Of a DNA stretch of 64,000 nt, positions 355-38,851 are shown in pieces. The stretch is taken from positions 3,530,229-3,594,228 of the forward strand of contig OZ243979.1 in assembly GCA_965214755.1 (NCBI GenBank), in the 5' to 3' direction. Made by a program: the position numbers and the translations under genes. The notes under the pieces are model-generated. The model saw only the letters and a program-made list of their open reading frames with translations. It had not been told where the DNA came from and did not search any database. How positions within the stretch are numbered: the first letter of the stretch is position 1; each line of letters starts with the position of its first letter. The DNA is from an uncultured Candidatus Binatia bacterium. Its GTDB lineage: Bacteria > Desulfobacterota > Binatia > Bin18.

Positions 355-408
355 AAAGAGTAAACGCGTCCTCTTCATGGTACAAGGCTGTTGACACGTT
401 TTCCTTCC
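355..408 (-). repeat. HPE hairpin element copy 0 (degenerate, orientation B)
   Basis: aaagagtaaacgcgtcctcttcatggtacaaggctgttgacacgttttccttcc. Left arm matches the family consensus; right arm is decayed. Sits in a divergent intergenic region. Confidence 0.6.
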
Positions 409-485: not shown

Positions 486-1598
486 ATGCAGGTCCGTTTG
501 CTCACCCAATTCGAGACGCCGCCGGCGCAAAGCGTGGCCACGGACCGGTATTTTCTTCACACCGTGATTGAGACGCAGCTTCCAGTCCTGCGCGTTTGTA
601 CGTATCCAGATGATGTGCTGCTGCTGGGTCGGTATCATGCTGCCGGCGCACAAAGCGGAAACGTGTCAACATCTCGGGTCAGATTGGAGGACACGTTTCC
701 GCTTCTCAGACCAGACCCAGGTCTGACGATTATCCGGCGTCTGACTGGCGGACGAGCCTTTCCGAGTGGCAACGGGTTTGTCCAATTTTCACTCATCGTG
801 CCGCACCGTTCATTTTTCTTTTCCGCCGACCCGCAGCACATCGCGCCGTTTCAGATCCTTAACCGTTACGTCCGCGGGGTGCTGCACGGCCTGAAAACAG
901 GTGGAGTTGAAGTCTTTTATCCAGGCCAGGATTTTCTGACGGTCCGGCGGCTGCCGGTTGGCTGGCACTCTTTTGTGACAGAGGACAGCGGAGCCGTGCT
1001 GTATGAAGGAGGTGTGTTTGTCCAGCGGGATATGAGTCTCCTGCCCCATTTGCTTGACCGGGCGGACCCGCAGGGGACGCTTCCCTGCCAGCTCTTTATG
1101 CCGGATCAAGTCCACAATCTTGGCAAAGTCCTCGGACGATCTCTTGCACCGGACCAGGTCGTTCGTCTGCTCCGGAACGGCTTTACTCAGCAGTTCGGGC
1201 TGGAATGCCTCGACCAAGACCTCAATCCAAACGAGCGTGCGGCCATTCCGGGAAAACAGGAACGGTCTGACCCCATTCCGAACCGGCGTCCTCCACGCTC
1301 CGACCTCCCATACGTAGCAACGAGGCAAACTCCACTTGGAGAACTCCAGATTCGTTTCGCTCTCACTCCCGAGCGGACAATCGAGACGATCCAGTTCTCG
1401 GGCGACTTCATTGCCAATCCGGCCGGGATGCAAGCGTTGGAGCACAATCTCAAAGGTTGTCCACTGGAGAAAGCCGCACTCTGGCAGGTCATTGATGGGA
1501 CGTTTCTTGATCCAGAGCATTATCTGATCGGGGCGGGGAAGTTAGCCGACTTACCCGGATTGCTGCTAAGCGCTTCTCCGGTCCCGCCCGCCAGGTAG
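486..1598 (+). CDS. biotin/lipoate A/B protein ligase family protein (LplA-like) with long C-terminal extension
   Basis: ORF 411..1598. ATG 486 (MQVRLLTQFE...) preferred because family members start close to this segment. RRLTGGRAF..GNGF resembles the RRxSGGGAV.HD.GN ligase motif (from memory). Carries HPE copy 1 in frame. Confidence 0.6.
   Translation: MQVRLLTQFETPPAQSVATDRYFLHTVIETQLPVLRVCTYPDDVLLLGRYHAAGAQSGNVSTSRVRLEDTFPLLRPDPGLTIIRRLTGGRAFPSGNGFVQFSLIVPHRSFFFSADPQHIAPFQILNRYVRGVLHGLKTGGVEVFYPGQDFLTVRRLPVGWHSFVTEDSGAVLYEGGVFVQRDMSLLPHLLDRADPQGTLPCQLFMPDQVHNLGKVLGRSLAPDQVVRLLRNGFTQQFGLECLDQDLNPNERAAIPGKQERSDPIPNRRPPRSDLPYVATRQTPLGELQIRFALTPERTIETIQFSGDFIANPAGMQALEHNLKGCPLEKAALWQVIDGTFLDPEHYLIGAGKLADLPGLLLSASPVPPAR
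652..704 (+). repeat. HPE copy 1 (orientation A), intragenic and in frame
   Basis: aaagcggaaacgtgtcaacatctcgggtcagattggaggacacgtttccgctt. Arms AAGCGGAAACGTGTC / GACACGTTTCCGCTT pair perfectly over 15 bp. Two positions differ from consensus on both arms in a compensatory way. Confidence 0.85.
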
Positions 1599-1601
1599 GC
1601 T

Positions 1602-2486
1602 ATGGAATCTACTCAGAACACCACCCTCCAACTCGACCAGCTTGCAGCCGGACTGCTCGCCGACGATGACCACACACGACTTTCGGCGCTCGATCGACTT
1701 GAGGCGGAGAGAACACTAACGTCTCTCCCACAAGATGTGATGCGTAATCTTCTCGCGTGTCTGGGACATACGACGAAAAAAATACAACGCGGTGCGGCGA
1801 CCGTCCTCACCCGCTTTGCCTCCCGACAGCCTGAAATTATCGAGGCACTGACATACAGGCTGACGGACCCGAACCCGCGGCTGCGCTGGACCGCGGCTTT
1901 TACCCTCTCTCAGCTCGACCTGCCGAGCCCCTCGCCTCAAAGAGTAAACGTGTCCTCCAATCAGACACTACTGCTGGACACGTCTACTCTTCTTCCCGTT
2001 TTGATCGAGAACCTGGGACACCAGGAAAGTGACCTGCGCTGGGCCGCGGCAACCGCTGTCTTGCAGCTCGCCCAGCGCTGTTCTCAAGACGTTGCTCACG
2101 CCATGATCCGGCTTGTGCATACGGGTAATGCCGTGCAACGCCGCATGGCTCTCTACTGCCTGCGCGACCTGAAGCAAACGGATCAAGCGGCCCAGGAAGC
2201 CTATCTGACGAGCCTGAATGACGCGGACCCAATGGTTCGCCTCGGCGGTCTATCCTGTTTGGGTAAGCTCCGATTGACCAGCAGAGCAATTCGAGAAGCG
2301 ATTCTCCGGCTTTTAGAACACGACCCGGACATGGGTGTCCGTCGTTCGGCTGCCATGACCTGCGGACAGATAGGCGACACGGACACACATATCGTTGAGG
2401 CGTTACAGCGAACGGTTCAATCGGCTGACACCAGCCTCAGAAAAGCATCGACCGGAGCACTCAGGCAACTGCCGACCGACTCGTAA
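1602..2486 (+). CDS. HEAT/ARM-like repeat protein
   Basis: 294 aa ORF. Repeated motif of the type D.D..VR..AA.aLg.. (e.g. DPNPRLRWTAAFTLSQL, DADPMVRLGGLSCLGKL, DPDMGVRRSAAMTCGQIG). Carries HPE copy 2 in frame. Confidence 0.75.
   Translation: MESTQNTTLQLDQLAAGLLADDDHTRLSALDRLEAERTLTSLPQDVMRNLLACLGHTTKKIQRGAATVLTRFASRQPEIIEALTYRLTDPNPRLRWTAAFTLSQLDLPSPSPQRVNVSSNQTLLLDTSTLLPVLIENLGHQESDLRWAAATAVLQLAQRCSQDVAHAMIRLVHTGNAVQRRMALYCLRDLKQTDQAAQEAYLTSLNDADPMVRLGGLSCLGKLRLTSRAIREAILRLLEHDPDMGVRRSAAMTCGQIGDTDTHIVEALQRTVQSADTSLRKASTGALRQLPTDS
1940..1992 (-). repeat. HPE copy 2 (orientation B), intragenic and in frame
   Basis: aaagagtaaacgtgtcctccaatcagacactactgctggacacgtctactctt. Translated as [19 protein letters not shown] within the HEAT-repeat ORF. 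Confidence 0.85.
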
Positions 2487-3382: not shown

Positions 3383-4213
3383 TCATTCCGTGGCCTTTTG
3401 TTCATCGTAGGTTTGATCGATCCGTTCAAACCGTCGCCGGATGGGCGTCCGGCTTTCCTCGTGGGGCAGGATGTAGAGTTGGTTGGCAACAATGGCATCC
3501 ACGACTTGCGTTGCAACATCCTCCACATTCAGGACCCGCCCGGCGAGATTCGGATTGTCTTCTCCCTGGTCGAGCACGGGCGGTGACGCCTCCGGACCCC
3601 CTAGTTCGTCGGGACGATTGCGCTCCGAGTGACCAATATTGGTTGCCACGCGCATCGGACACAGGACAGACACGCCGATAGCGTGCGCCCGCAGTTCTCG
3701 GCGCAGGACTTCGGCTAAAGCCACGACTCCATACTTGGACACACAGTACGGACCAAGCCCGACATTGGGGACGAGACCGGCAAACGAGGCGGTAAACAGC
3801 ATGTGACCGCCCTGACCTTGGGCGATCATGCGTTGCGTAAAGGCTTCAACACCGTGGATCGGACCCCATAAATTGACCCGTAGGGTCCACTCCCAGTCGC
3901 TATGCTGCATCTCAGCGATTGGCCCGCCAACGGCAACCCCAGCATTATGGAACACAATATGCACCGCGCCCATTTTTTCAAACGCAGTGTCAGCCAGGTG
4001 TTGAACGGCCTTCAGGTCGCCGACATCGCAGACTACTCCCTCTACGGCGGTTCCCGTCGCCGCTAGTTCGGCGACTGCCCGGTCCAAGGCCGCCTCTTCA
4101 ATATCGGCTAACACGAGTCGGACGCCTCGACTGGCAAGGCGGCGGGCAGTGGCAAATCCTATCCCACTTGCTCCACCCGTGATGACGGCAACTTTGGCGG
4201 TGAGGTGTTCCAT
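3383..4213 (-). CDS. short-chain dehydrogenase/reductase (SDR)
   Basis: TGGASGIG cofactor motif, NAGV, and catalytic YCVSKYG (YxxxK). Confidence 0.9.
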   Translation of the reverse strand: MEHLTAKVAVITGGASGIGFATARRLASRGVRLVLADIEEAALDRAVAELAATGTAVEGVVCDVGDLKAVQHLADTAFEKMGAVHIVFHNAGVAVGGPIAEMQHSDWEWTLRVNLWGPIHGVEAFTQRMIAQGQGGHMLFTASFAGLVPNVGLGPYCVSKYGVVALAEVLRRELRAHAIGVSVLCPMRVATNIGHSERNRPDELGGPEASPPVLDQGEDNPNLAGRVLNVEDVATQVVDAIVANQLYILPHEESRTPIRRRFERIDQTYDEQKATE

Positions 4214-4218
4214 ACTTC

Positions 4219-4270
4219 AAAGAGTAAACGTGTCCTCCAATAAATACAAACTGTTGACACATTTACTCTT
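4219..4270 (-). repeat. HPE copy 3 (orientation B on +, A in the sense of the SDR gene)
   Basis: aaagagtaaacgtgtcctccaataaatacaaactgttgacacatttactctt. Ends 5 nt from the SDR ATG (4213-4211). Confidence 0.85.
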
Positions 4271-12540: not shown

Positions 12541-12595
12541 GAAGAGTACACGTGTCCTCCAATCGTTTATACAAAGCTGGACACGTGTACTCTTT
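12541..12595 (-). repeat. HPE copy 4 (orientation B), intergenic
   Basis: gaagagtacacgtgtcctccaatcgtttatacaaagctggacacgtgtactcttt. Perfect 16 bp arms with a compensated A>C / T>G pair relative to consensus. Confidence 0.9.
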
Positions 12596-12889: not shown

Positions 12890-14164
12890 TCAGACCCGCC
12901 GTTGGCGCTGGGTCTGCTGCGCCTGAGCCGCAAACTCAGACGGCTTCATAATGAGCGAGCCTTTGGATTCTTCCTGTTGGTGTTGCTTTTCTTCCGTGTA
13001 GTGCAGGCCGATGCTCTGCTGGACCAATCCTTCACAAAAGGGAATGCCACTGCCACTCGCCCCCTCTTTTTGGAGGGCAAGCGACACGGCCAGGGCGCGT
13101 TGGGCTGACGTTACACGTCCGGTTGCCGCAAAATACAGCGCCATTTCTTCCAAGCGCCGTGCGTAGACCTGACCGCTCTCCCCTGAGAACACTTCGGCAA
13201 TCGCTTGTTTGATGACATCGTCCACCCGGTCTTTTTGCTGGTGCTGATTCAGCACCAAGGGGCTCTCCTGCGCACTGGTTATCTTTTCGACATAGGGCTT
13301 GGCCTGTTCAGCGTCAAACACCCACCGCTGCATTTCCGGCTCTTCGGCAAGCTGGATGGATGTGGCCAGGAACGTTTCGTCGGCGGCGACCGTCTGACGA
13401 TCTACACTGTCCGGTAGTGGCACTGTTTGGGGTAAAGAGTGAACGTGTCCAGCTTCGTCGGAACGATTGGAGGACGCGTTTACTCTTTCTGTCGGCGTAG
13501 TTAAAACAAAAGACCGAAGCGCGGGGTAGGATTCGACCTCTTTTTTGTCCTGTTCCTTGGCCCGTTCATAGCCTTCCTGCATCAGAAAAGCACAATACTG
13601 CCACGACACCTGAACCATGGTCACGCCGCGGTGGTTGAGCAAGTCCTGAAGCACCTGACGCAGCGTTTTTCTCGATATTTCCGTGCCATCAATAGAGCGC
13701 ATCCCCTCGGGCTCGTTGATTAGCGCAGACAAGAAATGCAGCCCGCCGCCAACACGCGATTTCACTATCCAAACGAGGCGATCACCGCGCCCATCCATTG
13801 CGGACAGATACCCTTCCGGTTCAATCGGGGTGAGAATGGACTTGCCCGCTCCCTTTTGCGGTCGGTCGGTCTGTATCCCTTTTTGCGACAGGCGATAGAG
13901 GGCACGGCTAATCTCTTTACGTAAACGCTTATCAGTGGCCTGCTCTGTCCAATCCACTAGGAACTGGGCCGACTCTGCCGTCTGGACCTCGCCCAGTAAA
14001 GCGGCCAAAGCCACGTCGGCGTCAGCATCCTGTCCTATGCGCTCACGCAGGCTGGCAATATCCAGGCTACGGTCTTGTCCGGCAGAGGGCTGAATTCCCC
14101 ATTCTTCCAGCGCTTTTTTGCCTCGTGCCAGGCATGGGTCGTGCTTCGCACTCTTTTTCGCCAT
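12890..14164 (-). CDS. hypothetical protein (424 aa)
   Basis: Long ORF with protein-like composition. No family recognised. Carries HPE copy 5 in frame. Confidence 0.65.
   Translation of the reverse strand: MAKKSAKHDPCLARGKKALEEWGIQPSAGQDRSLDIASLRERIGQDADADVALAALLGEVQTAESAQFLVDWTEQATDKRLRKEISRALYRLSQKGIQTDRPQKGAGKSILTPIEPEGYLSAMDGRGDRLVWIVKSRVGGGLHFLSALINEPEGMRSIDGTEISRKTLRQVLQDLLNHRGVTMVQVSWQYCAFLMQEGYERAKEQDKKEVESYPALRSFVLTTPTERVNASSNRSDEAGHVHSLPQTVPLPDSVDRQTVAADETFLATSIQLAEEPEMQRWVFDAEQAKPYVEKITSAQESPLVLNQHQQKDRVDDVIKQAIAEVFSGESGQVYARRLEEMALYFAATGRVTSAQRALAVSLALQKEGASGSGIPFCEGLVQQSIGLHYTEEKQHQQEESKGSLIMKPSEFAAQAQQTQRQRRV
13434..13488 (+). repeat. HPE copy 5 (orientation A), intragenic and in frame
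   Basis: aaagagtgaacgtgtccagcttcgtcggaacgattggaggacgcgtttactcttt. Read on the minus strand as ERVNASSNRSDEAGHVHSL. Confidence 0.85.
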
Positions 14165-14293: not shown

Positions 14294-15481
14294 ATGGCGA
14301 CAGCGCGTTTTTGTCCACAGTGCGGGACAAAGACTATCCCCAAAGCACATTTCTGTACGAATTGTGGGGAAGCCCTTGGAGGCAAGGCCGGTGGGCAGCA
14401 GGCCCAGAAATCGGCCACCCCATCAGCGGCAGGCGCCCAGCGGTTGCCACTCCCCGGCCTCATCGTTTTGTCCTGCTACCTCGCCGTGGGTATCGGACTC
14501 TGGGTATTTGTCCTGCGGACAGAGCCGTTCGCCCCGACCCCGACCGGTTCCCCTCAAGCCAGTACGGGCGGCTCGGCCTTGCCCCAGAATCATCCCGAGG
14601 TTGCCTTGCCCGAGGAGGTGAAGAGGCGTATTGCGGAACTGGTTGCCCAGGCCAATGCCGCCCCGCAAGACCCCAACGCCTGGCGGACTCTGGCTGAAGT
14701 CCAGTTTCGGGCGTCGCAGCTTGATGCCAGCTATCGCAGTGCGGCCCTGGCTTCCTATCGCAAGCTGTTTGAGCTTGCCCCGAGTGATCTGGATGCGCTG
14801 CGCGGCTTGGGGAATGTCTACTACGACCTTGAGGAACATCACCAGGCGATCGAGTATTATCAGCGCTACTTGGCGCTGAAACCGGATGATGCCAGCGTGG
14901 CGACCGACCTCGGGACCATGTATCTCTATACCGGCCAGGTCGACCAAGCCATCGCGTTCTATCAATCCGTCCTGGCCAAGCAGCCAACCTTCTTTCAGGC
15001 CCATTTTAACCTGGGGGTTGCCTACCAAGAGAAGGGTATGCCCGACCAAGCGGTCGCCTCATTACAGCAGGCCAAGAGTCTGACGGATAACACGGCCATT
15101 CAGGCCCGTATCGACCAGCTCCTGGAACAATTCTCGAACGGGACGGCCCCATCCCGAACCGCATCACCCCCCCCTAATAGGGGGGGGCAGGGAGAGGCGT
15201 CACCGTTTCAGCAAGCAGTGGAAGCGCTCTTTCGCTCGCATGAAATGATGGCGCCCAAAATCGTCCGTATCGAGTGGCTGTCGCAAACCCAGGCCAGGGT
15301 CTTCTTTCGCAATTTTCCCATGGCTGGTATGCCTCAGACTGTCCGAGACAGTTTCAGAGAAAAACTTCAGAGCCAGCTTAGCGCCGCCCGGCAAAAGACC
15401 GGTAGCAGTGGCTTGGCGACCGTTGAGCTTATCGATATTGATACCCGGCAAGTCATGGAGACTCTCACGACTCCCTCATAA
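14294..15481 (+). CDS. zinc-ribbon / transmembrane / TPR-repeat protein
   Basis: N-terminal CPQCG...CTNCG, a hydrophobic segment (LIVLSCYLAVGIGLWVFVL), then TPR-like repeats (NVYYDLEEHHQAIEYYQRYLALKPDD etc.). Confidence 0.8.
   Translation: MATARFCPQCGTKTIPKAHFCTNCGEALGGKAGGQQAQKSATPSAAGAQRLPLPGLIVLSCYLAVGIGLWVFVLRTEPFAPTPTGSPQASTGGSALPQNHPEVALPEEVKRRIAELVAQANAAPQDPNAWRTLAEVQFRASQLDASYRSAALASYRKLFELAPSDLDALRGLGNVYYDLEEHHQAIEYYQRYLALKPDDASVATDLGTMYLYTGQVDQAIAFYQSVLAKQPTFFQAHFNLGVAYQEKGMPDQAVASLQQAKSLTDNTAIQARIDQLLEQFSNGTAPSRTASPPPNRGGQGEASPFQQAVEALFRSHEMMAPKIVRIEWLSQTQARVFFRNFPMAGMPQTVRDSFREKLQSQLSAARQKTGSSGLATVELIDIDTRQVMETLTTPS
15167..15187. repeat. C-run/G-run mini-palindrome P2
   Basis: CCCCCCCC-TAATA-GGGGGGGG (followed by CA-GGGAGAGG) inside the TPR CDS, read as SPPPNRGGQGE. 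Confidence 0.7.
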
Positions 15482-15535
15482 AAGAGTACACGTGTCCAGC
15501 TTTGTATGAACGATTGGAGGAGACGTTTACTCTTT
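15481..15535 (+). repeat. HPE copy 6 (orientation A), between the TPR gene and the AAA+ gene
   Basis: aaagagtacacgtgtccagctttgtatgaacgattggaggagacgtttactcttt. Its first base is the last base of the TAA stop (15479-15481). Confidence 0.9.
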
Positions 15536-18029: not shown

Positions 18030-18752
18030 TCACACCCCAATGATCTCCCGGGCCGTGCGGAAGACGGCATGGAACATGGGCTGTGTGAGCCGCCCGGTAA
18101 AGGTGTTCTGTTGGCTGGGATGGTAGGAACCAATGAGGGTGACGCCATCCAAATCGTAACGCCTGCCATGTCCGAATTTTGGTCTGGGCGTCGGAACCCG
18201 CAGGCCGACTTCTCGCCGGGCTTTGAGATAGGCTGAAAAAGCCAACTGTCCCAGCGCCACAACGACCCGGACCTGTTTCAGCAGTTGGATTTCCCGTAGC
18301 AAATAGGGTTGACAGGCTTCGAATTCGTCTCGCGACGGCTTGTTGTCCGGCGGTGCACAGTGGACGGCCGCGGTGATATACGCGCCCTGTAACCTGAGGC
18401 CATCATCAATATGGATTGAGGTCGGCTGGTTGGCGAAGCCAGAGGCGTGTAATGCACCGAACACCCAGTCCCCGCTGCGATCTCCGGTAAACACCCGCCC
18501 CGTTCGGTTGCCGCCATGCGCCGCTGGCGCAAGGCCGACAATATACAGGCGAGCGGTGCGGTCACCAAGGCTCGGGACCGGCTTGCCCCAATAGTCCCAG
18601 GCGCGGTAGCGTTTGACTTTATCCTGGGCCGTACGCTGGCAGTGCCGGATGAGCCGGGGACAGCGCCGGCAGGCAACGATCCGGCGTTGGAGTTGGGCGA
18701 TGGTCCGCGAAGAGTAAACGTGTCCAGCTTTTTTGTCTGTATTGGAGGACAC
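18030..18752 (-). CDS. uracil-DNA glycosylase superfamily protein (family 4/5; GLAPA motif suggests family 5)
   Basis: CRRCPRL...GLAPAAHGGNRTGRVFTGD...SYHPSQQN. The only in-frame start is the GTG at 18752, inside HPE copy 7. Confidence 0.8.
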   Translation of the reverse strand: MSSNTDKKAGHVYSSRTIAQLQRRIVACRRCPRLIRHCQRTAQDKVKRYRAWDYWGKPVPSLGDRTARLYIVGLAPAAHGGNRTGRVFTGDRSGDWVFGALHASGFANQPTSIHIDDGLRLQGAYITAAVHCAPPDNKPSRDEFEACQPYLLREIQLLKQVRVVVALGQLAFSAYLKARREVGLRVPTPRPKFGHGRRYDLDGVTLIGSYHPSQQNTFTGRLTQPMFHAVFRTAREIIGV

Positions 18753-18763
18753 GTTTACTCTTT
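18709..18763 (+). repeat. HPE copy 7 (orientation A), spans the 5' end of the glycosylase gene
   Basis: gaagagtaaacgtgtccagcttttttgtctgtattggaggacacgtttactcttt. Confidence 0.9.
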
Positions 18764-18776
18764 ATCCCCGCTGGCT

Positions 18777-20255
18777 TTACAAACTCAATATATACTGCAC
18801 GAGCGTCCGCACGCCAAAGCCGGTCCCGCCTCTCGGAGCGTGTGGCAGGGCCCGCTCTGAAAAGGCCGGACCGGCAATATCCAGATGCGCCCAGGGAACA
18901 TCCGAGACAAACTCTTCAAGAAAAAGCGCCGCGGTAATAGCGCCCCCATAGCCCCCACCGATATTTTTAATGTCGGCAATGGGACTCTTGATGTCGTCCT
19001 TATACTCCTTCACCAAGGGCATGGGCCATAATTGTTCGCCCGTCTCTCTGCTGCTGGCTAACAAATCATCCGTCAGTTGCTGATTATTACTGAATAGCCC
19101 GGCGACTCGGGATCCCAGGGCGACCATGCAGGCGCCGGTTAGGGTGGCCAGGTCAATAATAACGTCGGGCTGGTCTTCGACGGCACAGATCAGGGCATCA
19201 GCCAGGATCAAACGGCCCTCTGCATCCGTATTGAGGACCTCGACGGTTTTGCCGTTTCGATAGCTGATAATATCACCGGGTTTCTGAGCCGTGCCGCTCG
19301 GCATATTTTCAGATGAGGGCACATAGCCCGTGACCTGGACCTGCGGTTTGAGCTGGGCAATCGCCCGCATCGTCCCCAGCACGGTTGCCCCACCCGACAT
19401 ATCAATCTTCATCGTCTCCATGGACTTCGCCGGCTTGAGCGAAAGTCCGCCGGAGTCAAAGGTGAGCCCCTTCCCGACCAGGGCCACTTTCTTTTTGGGT
19501 TTTGCGGAAGGGATATAGCGCAGCTTGATGAAGCGCGGCTCTTCCGGACCGCCACGCGAAACTGCCAGCAGGCCATGCATTTTGGCCGCCTTGATCTTGT
19601 TCACGCCCCAGACTTCGGTCTTGAGTCCGTTTCCGGCAGAGAGTTTTTTGGCTTGATTCGCCAAATACGTTGGCGTGGAGACCGAGGCCGGTTCATTGAC
19701 CAGATCGCGTGCCAGAAAGACACCCGGAACAGTATTGTGAACCGTTTCGAGGGCGCGGCTCAGCCGAGCACTTTTCTTGAGACCGGGACCAACCAGGGTG
19801 AAGGTCCCGATTGCCGTCTTTTTCCCGTTGTCGGATTTATACTTCTGGAAGACATAACCGGACAGCAGTAGCCCTTCGAGGATAGCCGCACCTATATCCT
19901 GAACATCCAGACTTGGTTCGACGAACCACGCCATGCTCTTCGCGCGTTGCTCCTGAGCCTGGCGGCGGGCCGTTGCTCCAACTTGACGCCAGGTGGACGA
20001 CTCAATGCTCCCTTGCTTCCCGAGTCCAACCAGCAGAACCAATACGCTGGGGAGGCGTTTATGCGTATGGAACAGGAGCGTCTCGCCCCGTTTGCCTTGG
20101 AATCGGCTGCGTCTCATCTGCTCGCGCAGCGCACCATCCACCGCAGTGTCAAGGGCTTTCAGGTGTGCGGCGTTTTGTTTCCCCTGAGCGACCGAGACAA
20201 CCAGCAGATCGCTACGTACTGCCGTAATGGACTGCGATTGAACCCGAATGTTCAT
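18777..20255 (-). CDS. pepA: leucyl aminopeptidase (M17)
   Basis: NTDAEGRL motif and M17-like sequence throughout. ATG 20255 (MNIRVQSQ...) preceded by GGAAGAAGG, preferred over the ORF-track start at 20300. Confidence 0.9.
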   Translation of the reverse strand: MNIRVQSQSITAVRSDLLVVSVAQGKQNAAHLKALDTAVDGALREQMRRSRFQGKRGETLLFHTHKRLPSVLVLLVGLGKQGSIESSTWRQVGATARRQAQEQRAKSMAWFVEPSLDVQDIGAAILEGLLLSGYVFQKYKSDNGKKTAIGTFTLVGPGLKKSARLSRALETVHNTVPGVFLARDLVNEPASVSTPTYLANQAKKLSAGNGLKTEVWGVNKIKAAKMHGLLAVSRGGPEEPRFIKLRYIPSAKPKKKVALVGKGLTFDSGGLSLKPAKSMETMKIDMSGGATVLGTMRAIAQLKPQVQVTGYVPSSENMPSGTAQKPGDIISYRNGKTVEVLNTDAEGRLILADALICAVEDQPDVIIDLATLTGACMVALGSRVAGLFSNNQQLTDDLLASSRETGEQLWPMPLVKEYKDDIKSPIADIKNIGGGYGGAITAALFLEEFVSDVPWAHLDIAGPAFSERALPHAPRGGTGFGVRTLVQYILSL

Positions 20256-20329: not shown

Positions 20330-20383
20330 AAAGAGTAAACGTGTCCAGCATCTACATGCTGTTGGAGGACACGTTTACTCTTT
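20330..20383 (+). repeat. HPE copy 8 (orientation A)
   Basis: aaagagtaaacgtgtccagcatctacatgctgttggaggacacgtttactcttt. A partial half-site, aaaagagtattacgc, lies at about 20299-20313. Confidence 0.9.
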
Positions 20384-20548: not shown

Positions 20549-20602
20549 AAAGAGTAACCGTGTCGTCCACCCTTGTCTGATTAGTGGACACGTTTACTCT
20601 TT
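20549..20602 (+). repeat. HPE copy 9 (orientation A, divergent loop)
   Basis: aaagagtaaccgtgtcgtccacccttgtctgattagtggacacgtttactcttt. Confidence 0.8.
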
Positions 20603-20907
20603 TCTTCCTTTTCTTCTTGGCCTTGGTTTGGCTTGAACGTCTTTTTTGCCAGATAAAACATTACCGCGCCAGCCGCCCCATACATCAGTATGCCCTCAAC
20701 CAGTCCGACTCCGCCAGCGAGCATGAGCACCAGGACAACCAGCGCTGTCCCAATGACAGCCACAACCTTTTCAATCCGTTCCTCCCGCTCGCGAACCTCT
20801 TCCACATGCGTACTCACCCGTGTTCCGCACTCCGGACAACGCCCCTTGCGCTTACGGTAGAGAATTTTTCCGCACTGGGGGCAGGGAATCCGAAGATGGA
20901 GTGGCAT
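20581..20907 (-). CDS. zinc-ribbon membrane protein (108 aa)
   Basis: CPQCG...CPECG, then two hydrophobic helices. The last ~6 codons (KSKRVH) and the stop lie inside HPE copy 9. Confidence 0.6.
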   Translation of the reverse strand: MPLHLRIPCPQCGKILYRKRKGRCPECGTRVSTHVEEVREREERIEKVVAVIGTALVVLVLMLAGGVGLVEGILMYGAAGAVMFYLAKKTFKPNQGQEEKEEKSKRVH

Positions 20908-36767: not shown

Positions 36768-37919
36768 TTACTTACTCCTCCGATAAAATGGCGGCTTGAT
36801 GACCGTCGCCGGAATATGGCGATTCCGGATCGCAACTGCCAGCGGTGTCCCAGAAGAGTAAACGTGCCCAGCTTTGTTGGTTTGGAGGGCGCGTTTACTC
36901 TTTTCGTCCGCGCACGACGGGGAAACATAGCCTAACGCAATACCAACGCCCAGCATGGGAGACTGGGTGCCACTCGTCACCACCCCGACCTGACGTTGAC
37001 TCTTTTGTTCACTCCAAATCGCATACCCCTGGCGAGGAATGCCAGCGCCTTCCATCCTGATCCCCACCAGGTGTTTTTCAATCCCATCAGCCTGCTGCTT
37101 GCGCAATGCCTCGGACCCAATAAAGGGGCCGGCCTCAAAATGGACGAGACGCTGTAAACCAGCCTCCAGCGGCGTGGTATGGGCATCAATATCGTTGCCA
37201 TATAAGAGATAGCCGGCCTCCAGGCGGAGCGTATCTCGTGCTCCCAGGCCGACGGGGACCAGGTTCGCCGCACCTCCTGCCTCGCCGCACGCCTGCCAGA
37301 TATGTTCAGCCCGCTCAGCCGGGACAAACAGCTCAAAGCCATCTTCCCCGGTATAGCCGGTCCGTGCCACAAGAGTCGGCACCCCGGTTACCTCCCCCTG
37401 GGCCGCCCAATAGCGACGAATGGCCGAAAGATCGTGTGATGTCAGCCGAGACAGAACCGTCTCCGCCTGCGGACCCTGGAGGGCGACCAATGCGTACTCG
37501 TCACTCCGGTCAATCACCTCAGCCCGGCCGCGATTGTGCTCTACCATCCACTCGTAGTCGGTCGTGCGGTTGGCGGCGTTCACACACACCAGATAGCGTT
37601 CCTCGGCCAGGCGATAGATAATGACGTCGTCGACTATGCCGCCATCGGCAAAACACATGACCGAGTACTGGGCCTGCATGATCCGTATGCGGGCAATATC
37701 GGTAACGAATAATTCCTGACAGACCTCATACGCCCGAGGACCGGCTATTTCGATCTCGCCCATATGGCTCAGATCGAACAGGCCGACCTGTGTCCGCACG
37801 GCCCGGTGTTCGGCAAGAATCCCGGTATACTGCACGGGCATCTGCCAGCCACCGAATTCAATCATGCGCGCCCCCACGGCACGATGCAGCTTATACAGCG
37901 GCGTTCGGTTGGCCCCCAT
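36768..37919 (-). CDS. gcvT: glycine cleavage system T protein (aminomethyltransferase) with a 17-codon HPE insertion near the C-terminus
   Basis: RTPLY..H...GA.M.EF.GW.MP..Y N-terminus, C-terminal ..V.IRN...PA.V.K.PF. Operon context. Confidence 0.9.
   Translation of the reverse strand: MGANRTPLYKLHRAVGARMIEFGGWQMPVQYTGILAEHRAVRTQVGLFDLSHMGEIEIAGPRAYEVCQELFVTDIARIRIMQAQYSVMCFADGGIVDDVIIYRLAEERYLVCVNAANRTTDYEWMVEHNRGRAEVIDRSDEYALVALQGPQAETVLSRLTSHDLSAIRRYWAAQGEVTGVPTLVARTGYTGEDGFELFVPAERAEHIWQACGEAGGAANLVPVGLGARDTLRLEAGYLLYGNDIDAHTTPLEAGLQRLVHFEAGPFIGSEALRKQQADGIEKHLVGIRMEGAGIPRQGYAIWSEQKSQRQVGVVTSGTQSPMLGVGIALGYVSPSCADEKSKRALQTNKAGHVYSSGTPLAVAIRNRHIPATVIKPPFYRRSK
36853..36903 (+). repeat. 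HPE copy 10 (orientation A), inside gcvT, exactly 51 bp
   Basis: gaagagtaaacgtgcccagctttgttggtttggagggcgcgtttactcttt. GCCC/GGGC replaces GTCC/GGAC (compensated). Confidence 0.85.
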
Positions 37920-37920
37920 A

Positions 37921-38790
37921 TCACATCCGAACGTTGGTCTGCCTTTCCGCAGCCTGGACAGTGTTGGCTAAGAGCATGGCAACAGTCAGCGGTCCGACCC
38001 CGCCTGGGACAGGAGAAATATAGGCGGCGCGTTCCTTGGCAATAGCGAACTCCACATCCCCTTTCAGCGACCCATCAGGACTCCGCGAGATGCCAACATC
38101 AATGACACCTGCTCCGTGTTTTATCCAGTCCCCTTTGATGGCGTCAATTTGCCCGACTGCGGCCACGACAAGATCGGCCTGGCGGATGTGGTCGGCGAGG
38201 TCGGCCGTGTGCGAGTGGCAGCTCGTCACGGTCGCGTTTCGCTCCAGTAACAGGAGAGCCAACGGTTTGCCAACCAGATTGCTGCGACCAACGACGACCG
38301 CGCGTTTGCCCTCGATAGCCATCCCGCTCTGTTCAATGAGATGCATCACCCCCAGCGGGGTGCAGGGGCGGAGCCCGGCCTGGCCTAATACCAGGCGGCC
38401 CTGATTCACCGGATGGAGCCCGTCAACGTCCTTGTCCGGCCGGATAACCTCAATCAGAGACGCCGAATCCAAATGATCCGGCAGCGGAAGTTGGAGCAGA
38501 ATACCGTTGACATCGGGACGTGCGTTGAGCCGATCAATGAGCGTAGTGACTTCGTCGGCTGATGCGGTCGCCGGCAGGCGATGGCCGAACGGCGCAATAC
38601 CGACCTCACGGCAGGCTTTTTCCTTGGCGTCAACATAGGCGCACGAGGCCGGGTCCTCGCCGATCAGAATCGTTGCCAGCCCCGGTTGCCAGTCGTGGCG
38701 GCCCTGCTGTTGCCGAATCTGCGCAATGCGTTCCTTCAGGCCCCGGCGGACTGTCTGCGCGTACTGCTTTCCATCAAGTATCACACCCAT
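37921..38790 (-). CDS. folD: bifunctional methylenetetrahydrofolate dehydrogenase/cyclohydrolase
   Basis: MGVILDGKQYA... N-terminus. PGGVGP.T near the C-terminus. Confidence 0.9.
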   Translation of the reverse strand: MGVILDGKQYAQTVRRGLKERIAQIRQQQGRHDWQPGLATILIGEDPASCAYVDAKEKACREVGIAPFGHRLPATASADEVTTLIDRLNARPDVNGILLQLPLPDHLDSASLIEVIRPDKDVDGLHPVNQGRLVLGQAGLRPCTPLGVMHLIEQSGMAIEGKRAVVVGRSNLVGKPLALLLLERNATVTSCHSHTADLADHIRQADLVVAAVGQIDAIKGDWIKHGAGVIDVGISRSPDGSLKGDVEFAIAKERAAYISPVPGGVGPLTVAMLLANTVQAAERQTNVRM

Positions 38791-38795
38791 GCTAC

Positions 38796-38851
38796 AAAGA
38801 GTAAACGTGTCCAGCTTTTTTATATCTCATTGGAGGACACGTTCACTCTTT
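38796..38851 (+). repeat. HPE copy 11 (orientation A on +, B in the sense of folD)
   Basis: aaagagtaaacgtgtccagcttttttatatctcattggaggacacgttcactcttt. Ends 5 nt from the folD ATG (38790-38788). Confidence 0.9.

Follow-up and report, generated by a model that had tools for sequence, protein, structure and literature searches.

Short palindromic repeats of the repetitive extragenic palindromic (REP), miniature inverted-repeat transposable element (MITE) and Rickettsia palindromic element (RPE) types have, to our knowledge, so far been known for supplying promoters, RNA-stability signals and internal segments that are read in frame. The great majority of REPINs lie outside genes (in SBW25, 14 of ~1,067 16-mers overlap genes), and the inter-REP spacings in SBW25 are 71 or 110 bp (PMC3116915). 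RPEs, in so far as the first description is summarized elsewhere, are internal insertions of ~150 bp that occur in Rickettsia only (Ogata et al., 2000, via PMC10969869), and MITEs alter the expression of neighbouring genes and occasionally create in-frame fusions, although the term ‘start codon’ is absent from the review in question (PMC10969869). Here we analyse a stretch of 64,000 nucleotides (the window) from an uncultured Candidatus Binatia bacterium (assembly GCA_965214755.1, contig OZ243979.1, positions 3,530,229 to 3,594,228), in which a palindromic repeat element lies between pepA and the gene for a uracil-DNA glycosylase (UDG; gene udg). Comparison with related loci shows that insertion of the element replaced the ancestral ATG start of udg, and suggests that the gene is now translated from a GTG within the element's own stem. 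The locus thereby offers a clean and datable natural experiment, in which a mobile palindrome destroyed the start of a conserved gene and probably supplied the replacement at once, with udg kept under purifying selection across a species-level radiation after the swap. This would extend the known effects of REP-, MITE- and RPE-type elements to the donation of an initiation codon, for which limited literature searches (including one on Correia elements and start codons) found no precedent.

The locus is read from the minus strand. Upstream of udg lies pepA (M17 leucyl aminopeptidase, 18777..20255; Pfam match at 2e-126), co-directional with udg and in the same reading frame. Its TAA stop codon (18779-18777) is followed by AGC CAG CGG GGA, a further TAA, AGA GTA AAC and GTG, so that the reading given in an earlier note on this DNA (four codons after the pepA stop, a TAA at 18762-18764 and a GTG at 18752 in the arm that opens the UDG frame) holds throughout. 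The 13-nt spacer AGCCAGCGGGGAT (18764..18776) contains the G-rich run GGGGA and, in the window, has suffered a 12-nt deletion relative to the related loci L004, L005 and L008. The element itself (18710..18762; 53 bp, or 54 bp counting the leading A at 18763) reads AAGAGTAAACGTGTCC-TCCAATACAGACAAAAAAGCT-GGACACGTTTACTCTT on the mRNA strand, and the same sequence is present in L004, L005 and L008. Its 5' arm (18747..18762) holds the Shine–Dalgarno (SD)-like AAGAG together with the GTG (18750..18752), its 21-nt loop (18726..18746) encodes SNTDKKA, and its 3' arm (18710..18725) encodes GHVYS and the first base of S15. The arms, separated by 21 nt, are 100% complementary over 16 bp, and the hairpin RNA by itself is predicted to fold at -24.2 kcal/mol (z-score of -3.6 in a 101-nt context). 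The stem had been put at 17 bp; the inverted repeat is indeed perfect, but over 16 bp here, the 17th position being an A.C mismatch, a flank variant found in 29 of 185 copies of the repeat. Similarly, the TAA on the 5' boundary of the element (18764-18762), by which the frame is closed ahead of the GTG, is in frame, as described earlier, but consists of a flanking T and the first two A's of AAAGAG; the TAA of GAGTAA, for which it had been taken, lies in another frame.

From the GTG, the UDG coding sequence (18030..18752) specifies 240 aa, and its product begins MSSNTDKKAGHVYSS-RTIAQLQRRIVACRRCPRL. The element provides codons 1–14 and the first base of codon 15 (TCG, 18710-18708), in keeping with the earlier figure of about 14 codons. 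Also as claimed there, no other in-frame ATG, GTG or TTG precedes the catalytic GLAPA motif: the next is the GTG at 18494 (codon 87), past GLAPAAHGGNRTGR and hence past the Fe–S cysteines and GLAPAAHG, and the interval contains near-cognate ATC codons only (18701, 18680 and 18650). The GTG at 18752 is accordingly the sole canonical in-frame start available to UDG, the ATC of Ile18 (18699..18701) being the only plausible non-canonical alternative downstream of the hairpin. No terminator-like or promoter-like sites were called at the pepA–udg junction, the combination of a GC-rich stem and a U-tract typical of an intrinsic terminator was not found at the element (the tail is CGCGGACC), and Rfam gave no match in the window at the gathering threshold, with only generic hairpin matches, well below threshold, at the element.

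The pepA–udg–cbbQ synteny is kept in all close relatives. Empty-site DNA was examined at three loci (L001, L002 and L003), where GGGGAT or GGCGAT is followed by a spacer of 12–22 nt and then by ATG CGG ACC; the UDG proteins P0005 and P0006, and by sequence also P0008 and P0009, begin MRTIAQLQ. At the filled sites (the window, L004–L008, L123 and L124) the element directly follows GGGGAT, or in some alleles AGGGAT or GGAGAT, and is itself followed by CG CGG ACC: the spacer and the AT of the ATG are gone, ATG CGG has become TTCG CGG, and the junction reads CTCTT-CG CGG ACC. Considering that the empty relatives carry an ATG exactly where the element ends, and that 95 of the 120 best homologues start there (their Met1, 13 residues before the first Cys, corresponds to the codon that is now TCG, 18708..18710), the alignments show that the ancestral start was replaced by the insertion. 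This had been one of two options raised in the earlier note, and the comparison of UDG N-termini among relatives that was proposed there comes down on the same side. Among the 120 homologues, a Met1-to-Cys offset of 26–27 (that is, +13 or +14) occurs in the four element-bearing proteins only.

The junction sequence is identical across all filled alleles, and the synonymous divergence (dS) is 0.03–0.36 between filled alleles and 0.40–0.65 between filled and empty-site genes; identical junctions and the closer mutual relationship of the filled alleles indicate one insertion after the split from the L002 lineage. The same locus with the element was found in two more species-level genomes (L012, OZ242288.1; L071, CBDBDK01), which brings the total to ten independent element-bearing assemblies. 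A metagenome scan added two close alleles, the others being at most 65% identical and uninformative on the junction, and OZ252051.1 has family hairpins, yet an empty udg site. In a more distant Binatia lineage (L203) the ancestral udg start is occupied by GTG rather than ATG, so GTG initiation is compatible with this gene. An independent 5' disruption was considered for P0090 and P0102 (202-aa calls that lack the Cys motif) and rejected, since with GTG at the ancestral start of L203 the gene caller picked a downstream start and thereby produced such a call. In L203 (1233-1872) and L204 (1311-1950) a two-gene cassette, consisting of a 76-aa open reading frame (ORF) and a PIN-domain protein, lies between pepA and udg; this is likely to be a toxin–antitoxin pair.

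The UDG product matches Pfam PF03167 (7.9e-28), and its best solved relative is the family-5 enzyme UDGB of Thermus thermophilus (2D3Y; 3e-55 over residues 24–239). The UDG fold, motif A (GLAPA-AHG), motif B (HPS) and four 4Fe–4S cysteines, two of them near the N-terminus, are all recognizable, and by homology the host gene is of the family-5 (UdgB) type. In a 33-sequence alignment C28, C31, C132 and C147 (Fe–S ligands by homology to Thermus UDGB), GLAPAAHG (G73–G80) and HPSQQN (H211–N216) are invariant; since this includes C28, a functional UDG product must start upstream of that residue. Over the 222 codons from Arg16, the ratio of non-synonymous to synonymous divergence (dN/dS) among eight filled alleles is 0.09–0.14 wherever dS is informative (0.18–0.36), comparisons with empty-site genes give 0.10–0.16, which is no distinction from the filled–filled values, and there are no stops or frameshifts in any of the 10 filled alleles. 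Such ratios at dS values of up to 0.36 argue that the gene is still functional, and the substitution pattern indicates that udg remained under purifying selection after losing its ATG. In an AlphaFold2 model of moderate quality (mean predicted local distance difference test score, pLDDT, of 74.5, with the leader present in few alignment rows) residues 1–13 have pLDDT <50 and the first helix begins at residue 18, from which we suggest that the element-encoded leader of 14–15 residues is probably disordered and tolerated as a floppy tail.

The udg copy belongs to a Binatia repeat family that appears to be undescribed. Literature searches found nothing relevant on Binatia repeats. The arm 16-mer, with up to 3 mismatches, has 24 matches in the window (0.28 expected), and in these 64 kb about 12 copies of the hairpin were recognized, which share a clear consensus and have an asymmetric loop (TCCAAT...AGCT); at least 16 species-representative Candidatus Binatia genomes contain exact hairpins. 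Family statistics were drawn from 971 kb of Binatia DNA with 179–185 unique copies; the manner of collection had enriched this DNA for copies. Element length is 49–58 bp and loop length 17–26 nt (20 nt in 109 copies, 21 nt in 50), and the stems show 39 compensatory double changes across 185 copies, compared with 3.2 in shuffles (maximum 11). At udg, the element differs at 0 of 54 positions between the window and L004, L005 and L008, where 4-fold-site divergence is 0.17–0.28; the chance of 0/54 differences is ~4e-5 at p = 0.17. A neighbouring orthologous copy is likewise conserved (2–6 differences in 55) and has an analogous compensated variant, and both the udg copy and the copy at 20331 are common to lineages with dS of ~0.3, which speaks for long persistence at orthologous sites. 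Of the 93 cases in which a copy adjoins a long ORF, an ORF heuristic marks 29 as candidates for an intragenic position.

As to how the element moves, no target-site duplication was seen at three filled/empty comparisons (the udg site, 20331 and 20550), two of which show a few host bases lost or replaced. A regular-expression search for HUH...Y motifs of REP-associated tyrosine transposases (RAYTs) gave no match over the 971 kb of Binatia DNA, which is a weak test, and no parent insertion sequence with the same termini turned up in the window, where no systematic search was made. The copy at L052 6456-6507 has the same flanks as its orthologues at L075 6036-6087 and L083 4056-4107 and an exactly reverse-complemented loop (TCCAATAAATAACAGATGCT vs AGCATCTGTTATTTATTGGA), which may reflect either a flip between the inverted arms or re-insertion at the site in the opposite orientation. 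Loop orientation is the same in all udg alleles; according to a hand translation, a flipped udg loop would still be open and in frame. In the window copies at 356-408, 653-704 and 4220-4270 one arm has TTGACAC for TGGACAC, that is, a perfect -35-like hexamer TTGACA.

We suggest the following course of events. A ~53-bp non-autonomous palindromic repeat inserted once into the short pepA–udg spacer in the ancestor of one Binatia clade, and the spacer was lost together with the AT of the ancestral ATG, either through the insertion itself or through a deletion linked to it. The 5' arm happens to contain AAAGAG-N5-GTG in a frame that is open through the loop and the 3' arm and joins the UDG frame, so that UDG would now be translated from this GTG with a leader of 14–15 element-encoded residues. 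Initiation would proceed despite the hairpin, probably at a lower level that suffices for a low-abundance repair enzyme, and the hairpin would be kept because the repeat family as a whole is kept. We put the probability that UDG is translated from the GTG in the stem at roughly 0.7. Use of the GTG, and initiation in spite of the hairpin, are the best inference, reached by elimination: the GTG is the only canonical codon upstream of the essential Cys, in a gene under purifying selection, and to this extent the earlier claim that UDG translation depends on sequence inside the stem is upheld. A product started at the GTG would have the N-terminal peptide (M)SSNTDKKAGHVYSSR. The GTG is retained in all 10 element-bearing alleles, and predicted anti-SD pairing is -5.7 kcal/mol upstream of it, compared with -2.6 upstream of the ATC at 18701. 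The sole change in leader length, a 3-nt loop deletion in an A-run (21 to 18 nt; L006, L007, L123, L124 and L012), keeps the frame, and 18-nt loops are found in 3 of 179 family copies.

Several considerations weigh against use of the GTG or lessen the value of these observations. The arm positions that make up the GTG are consensus in 168–178 of 185 copies family-wide, and its retention in all alleles is therefore no specific evidence of start use; the frame-keeping indel is a single event with a chance of ~1 in 3; and since the arms have no stops in the frames concerned and 264 of 321 GTG frames run through an element without a stop, an open leader is unsurprising by itself. Moreover, a stem of -20 to -27 kcal/mol sequesters the SD-like motif as well as the GTG, and freeing positions -18 to +12 would cost 18–26 kcal/mol in filled alleles as opposed to 10–12 at the empty-site ATG. 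Thermodynamic (equilibrium) models of initiation predict that initiation should then be lower by orders of magnitude.

Initiation next to these hairpins seems, judged from gene positions, to be commonplace in Binatia genomes. The first start lies within 30 nt of the element end in 37 of 93 copy adjacencies to ORFs of at least 150 codons; in L113 (2381-2432) and L092 (5002-5053) CTCTT|ATG abuts the element and leads into a DVVIVGG Rossmann (flavoprotein) motif, and in L036 (6483-6534), L045 and L069 a CTCTT|TTG start does so. Many copies end 0–12 nt before the start of a long ORF, those at 38797-38850 and 4220-4270 of the window among them, which would place the whole ribosome-binding region of such genes in the 3' arm of a stable hairpin. 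Among ~180 copies, no locus other than udg makes a convincing case for a start codon within the element itself. The ammonium transporter gene at L044, with its next start 51 codons on and its Pfam domain beginning at residue 118, was considered as a second element-dependent start and dismissed, the Met of a signal peptide (MKRLFALG...) following the element; the remaining candidates are short or anonymous ORFs.

The other option in the earlier note, that the hairpin gates initiation, shares the GTG start and adds a regulatory function to it: the element would have been recruited as a dosage regulator of the repair enzyme, and UDG would be made only when the stem is melted by ribosomes finishing pepA (coupling or re-initiation), by co-transcriptional loading of 30S ahead of synthesis of the 3' arm, by temperature or by a helicase. 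Such a selected translational gate could be read into the location of both the start and the SD-like motif within a stable stem, into the compensatory T-to-G/A-to-C change that preserves the stem in L007 and into the unchanged element that the window shares with L004 despite their 4-fold-site divergence. However, conservation and compensation are properties of the whole family, as the excess of double changes and the conserved neighbouring copy testify, and three alleles have a stem mismatch with no sign of restoration. Coupling in particular might be favoured by the fact that pepA and udg are co-directional, 24–36 nt apart and in the same frame in all filled alleles, with no promoter-like site between them. 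In the eight filled alleles for which this was measured, the pepA stop and the GTG are 24, 33 or 36 nt apart (37 or 46 nt to the ATG of empty sites), values which keep the two genes in one frame throughout, with two stops between; but this agreement rests on only two independent indels and has a chance of ~1 in 9. The distance from the pepA stop to the stem, moreover, varies from 13 nt in the window to 22 or 25 nt in other alleles, and ribosome footprints put even the shortest of these at or beyond the reach of a terminating ribosome. Since a likely PIN toxin–antitoxin pair sits between pepA and udg in another lineage, coupling is not ancestral. Considering the family-wide conservation, the variable spacing and the PIN pair, we regard gating and coupling as a minority hypothesis and an unlikely one, and recruitment of the hairpin as a UDG-specific switch finds no specific support. 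We are similarly doubtful of a more general proposal, according to which Binatia hairpin repeats are modular translational regulators, with stems that set or conditionally gate initiation, for instance by coupling to the gene upstream, by ribosome loading during transcription or by a helicase, and make up a genome-wide dosage layer; it would cover dozens of genes with a start no more than 30 nt beyond a copy, and udg would then be the extreme case, in which the start codon itself is borne by the element.

Three further explanations were considered. Translation might begin downstream of the hairpin at the near-cognate ATC (18701, Ile18), leaving the element leader untranslated; in a variant of this idea the folded hairpin brings the GGGGA of the spacer to ~9 nt from the ATC and creates a split ribosome-binding site like that of gene 38 in phage T4. 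This ATC is in frame, precedes the Cys ligands and occurs in every filled allele, its product would be merely 2 residues shorter than the ancestral protein, and GGGGA (AGGGA or GGAGA in other filled alleles) directly precedes the stem in the window, L004 and L005. Nevertheless we think a start at the ATC quite improbable: ATC is a very poor initiator in E. coli measurements, the linear upstream region is predicted to pair only weakly with the anti-SD (the -2.6 kcal/mol given above), the codon is ATT in empty relatives and ATC in filled ones, with no move towards a better start, and the frame-keeping 3-nt loop deletion would be a coincidence. It is formally conceivable that udg was silenced by the insertion and is a decaying pseudogene, as loss of the canonical ATG and burial of the sole start in a stable hairpin might lead one to expect. 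The earlier note had counted a pseudogene among the outcomes that would overturn its claim; this is rejected as very improbable by dN/dS values of 0.09–0.14 that equal those of empty-site comparisons, by the absence of stops and frameshifts in 10 alleles and by the invariant Cys and motifs. Lastly, dispersed repeats are classic break and join points in metagenome-assembled genomes (MAGs), and the junction might be a chimeric mis-assembly at the repeat. An identical junction and pepA–udg–cbbQ synteny in ten independent assemblies from different samples and assemblers, with allele-specific substitutions, leave this explanation with next to no likelihood and exclude an assembly artefact.

With the 12-nt deletion in the window, the hairpin base lies 13 nt from the stop codon of pepA. 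REP hairpins no more than ~15 nt away from a stop codon reportedly can stall ribosomes at termination and reduce expression of the gene upstream (Liang, Rudd & Deutscher, 2015). If this applies here, pepA output could be affected, and in this strain only.

Sister copies in the window show that gene ends other than that of udg have been remodelled. Two of them lie less than 2 kb from udg. On the minus strand, the copy at 20331..20382 has taken the place of the final 7 residues and the stop of a 58-aa gene (...LAREAAPAA* altered); L004, L006 and L007 also have this copy, L001 and L002 lack it, and in L008 it has been deleted. The window-specific copy at 20550..20601, also on the minus strand, lies on the stop of a 108-aa ORF (20581-20907; Zn-ribbon/transmembrane) and adds KSKRVH, changing EKEE* to EKEEKSKRVH*. 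On the plus strand, the copies at 653..704 and 1940..1991 are read in frame inside an LplA/B-type lipoate ligase ORF (411-1598) and a HEAT-repeat ORF (1602-2486), respectively, and a copy at L073 3133-3185 is likewise in frame within a CoA-transferase III gene, with a Pfam match that extends to both sides of the copy; each of these three adds ~17 residues, and the Pfam domains continue on either side. Further intragenic candidates are the copy at 13435..13487, in a long minus-strand ORF (12890-14164), and, putatively, the 49-bp copy at 36854..36902 in the 3' part of the minus-strand ORF 36768-37919. Other copies lie between genes or at their borders: a degenerate copy (356..408) 3 nt upstream of ORF 411-1598; one (4220..4270) flanked by co-directional ORFs of the minus strand and lying 7 nt ahead of the start at 4213; one (38797..38850) at the same distance ahead of the start of ORF 37921-38790, also on the minus strand; and one (12542..12594) that is intergenic. 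A TPR/Zn-ribbon ORF (14294-15481) has its TAA immediately before the copy at 15482..15534, and a CbbQ/MoxR-type ATPase has its likely ATG (15552) 18 nt after the end of this copy; the last T of the copy makes a TTG, which extends the ORF call for the ATPase to 15534.

Two consequences follow from these results. They raise the question of how a bacterial ribosome would initiate at a GTG that is paired within a stem of about -24 kcal/mol, and they carry a warning for the annotation of Binatia and similar repeat-rich MAGs: the elements often remodel gene ends, and start calls near them need comparative checks.

Starts sequestered in RNA structure are familiar from studies of the MS2 coat gene and from RNA thermometers, and a split ribosome-binding site is known from gene 38 of phage T4. 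The udg hairpin resembles the MS2 and thermometer structures in that an SD-like motif and a start codon are paired in a stable stem. In contrast to these structures, which evolved or were engineered as regulators, the udg stem has arisen as the by-product of a mobile repeat, without any indication that it melts conditionally. At the protein level, UDG differs from Thermus UDGB (2D3Y) by its N-terminal extension of 14 residues, which is lacking in 95 of 120 homologues. With bacterial MITEs (Correia/CREE, ERIC, BOX and RUP) the element shares small size, non-autonomy and bounding by inverted repeats, its perfect arms being terminal inverted repeats as in MITEs; it departs from them in that no target-site duplication was seen at the three comparisons and in that the whole element is in essence one hairpin.

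The closest analogues of the Binatia element are REPINs and RPEs. Like REPINs, it consists of two short conserved inverted repeats around a less conserved spacer of fixed length and is predicted to form a hairpin, it is dispersed (about a dozen copies per 64 kb here), with frequent compensatory changes and persistence at orthologous sites, and it has no visible target-site duplication. Unlike REPINs, nearly all of which are extragenic, Binatia copies often lie in frame inside genes or overlap gene ends; the unit is also much shorter, with its loop of 17–26 nt, and the single arm has no internal palindrome. With RPEs it has in common that a palindromic mobile repeat is read in frame in unrelated coding genes and translated as a peptide segment that the host tolerates. 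It differs from them in its size of 53 bp and its perfect stem of 16–17 bp, and its hosts are Candidatus Binatia, whereas the RPE sequence families, RPE-1 to RPE-10, belong to Rickettsia. Furthermore, at udg the element replaces the initiation codon itself, whereas RPEs, in the summarized description cited at the outset, are reported as internal segments. Considering that it has about one third of the length of an RPE as first described and occurs in an unrelated phylum, we regard the Binatia element as an analogue of the RPEs and not as a member of that family.

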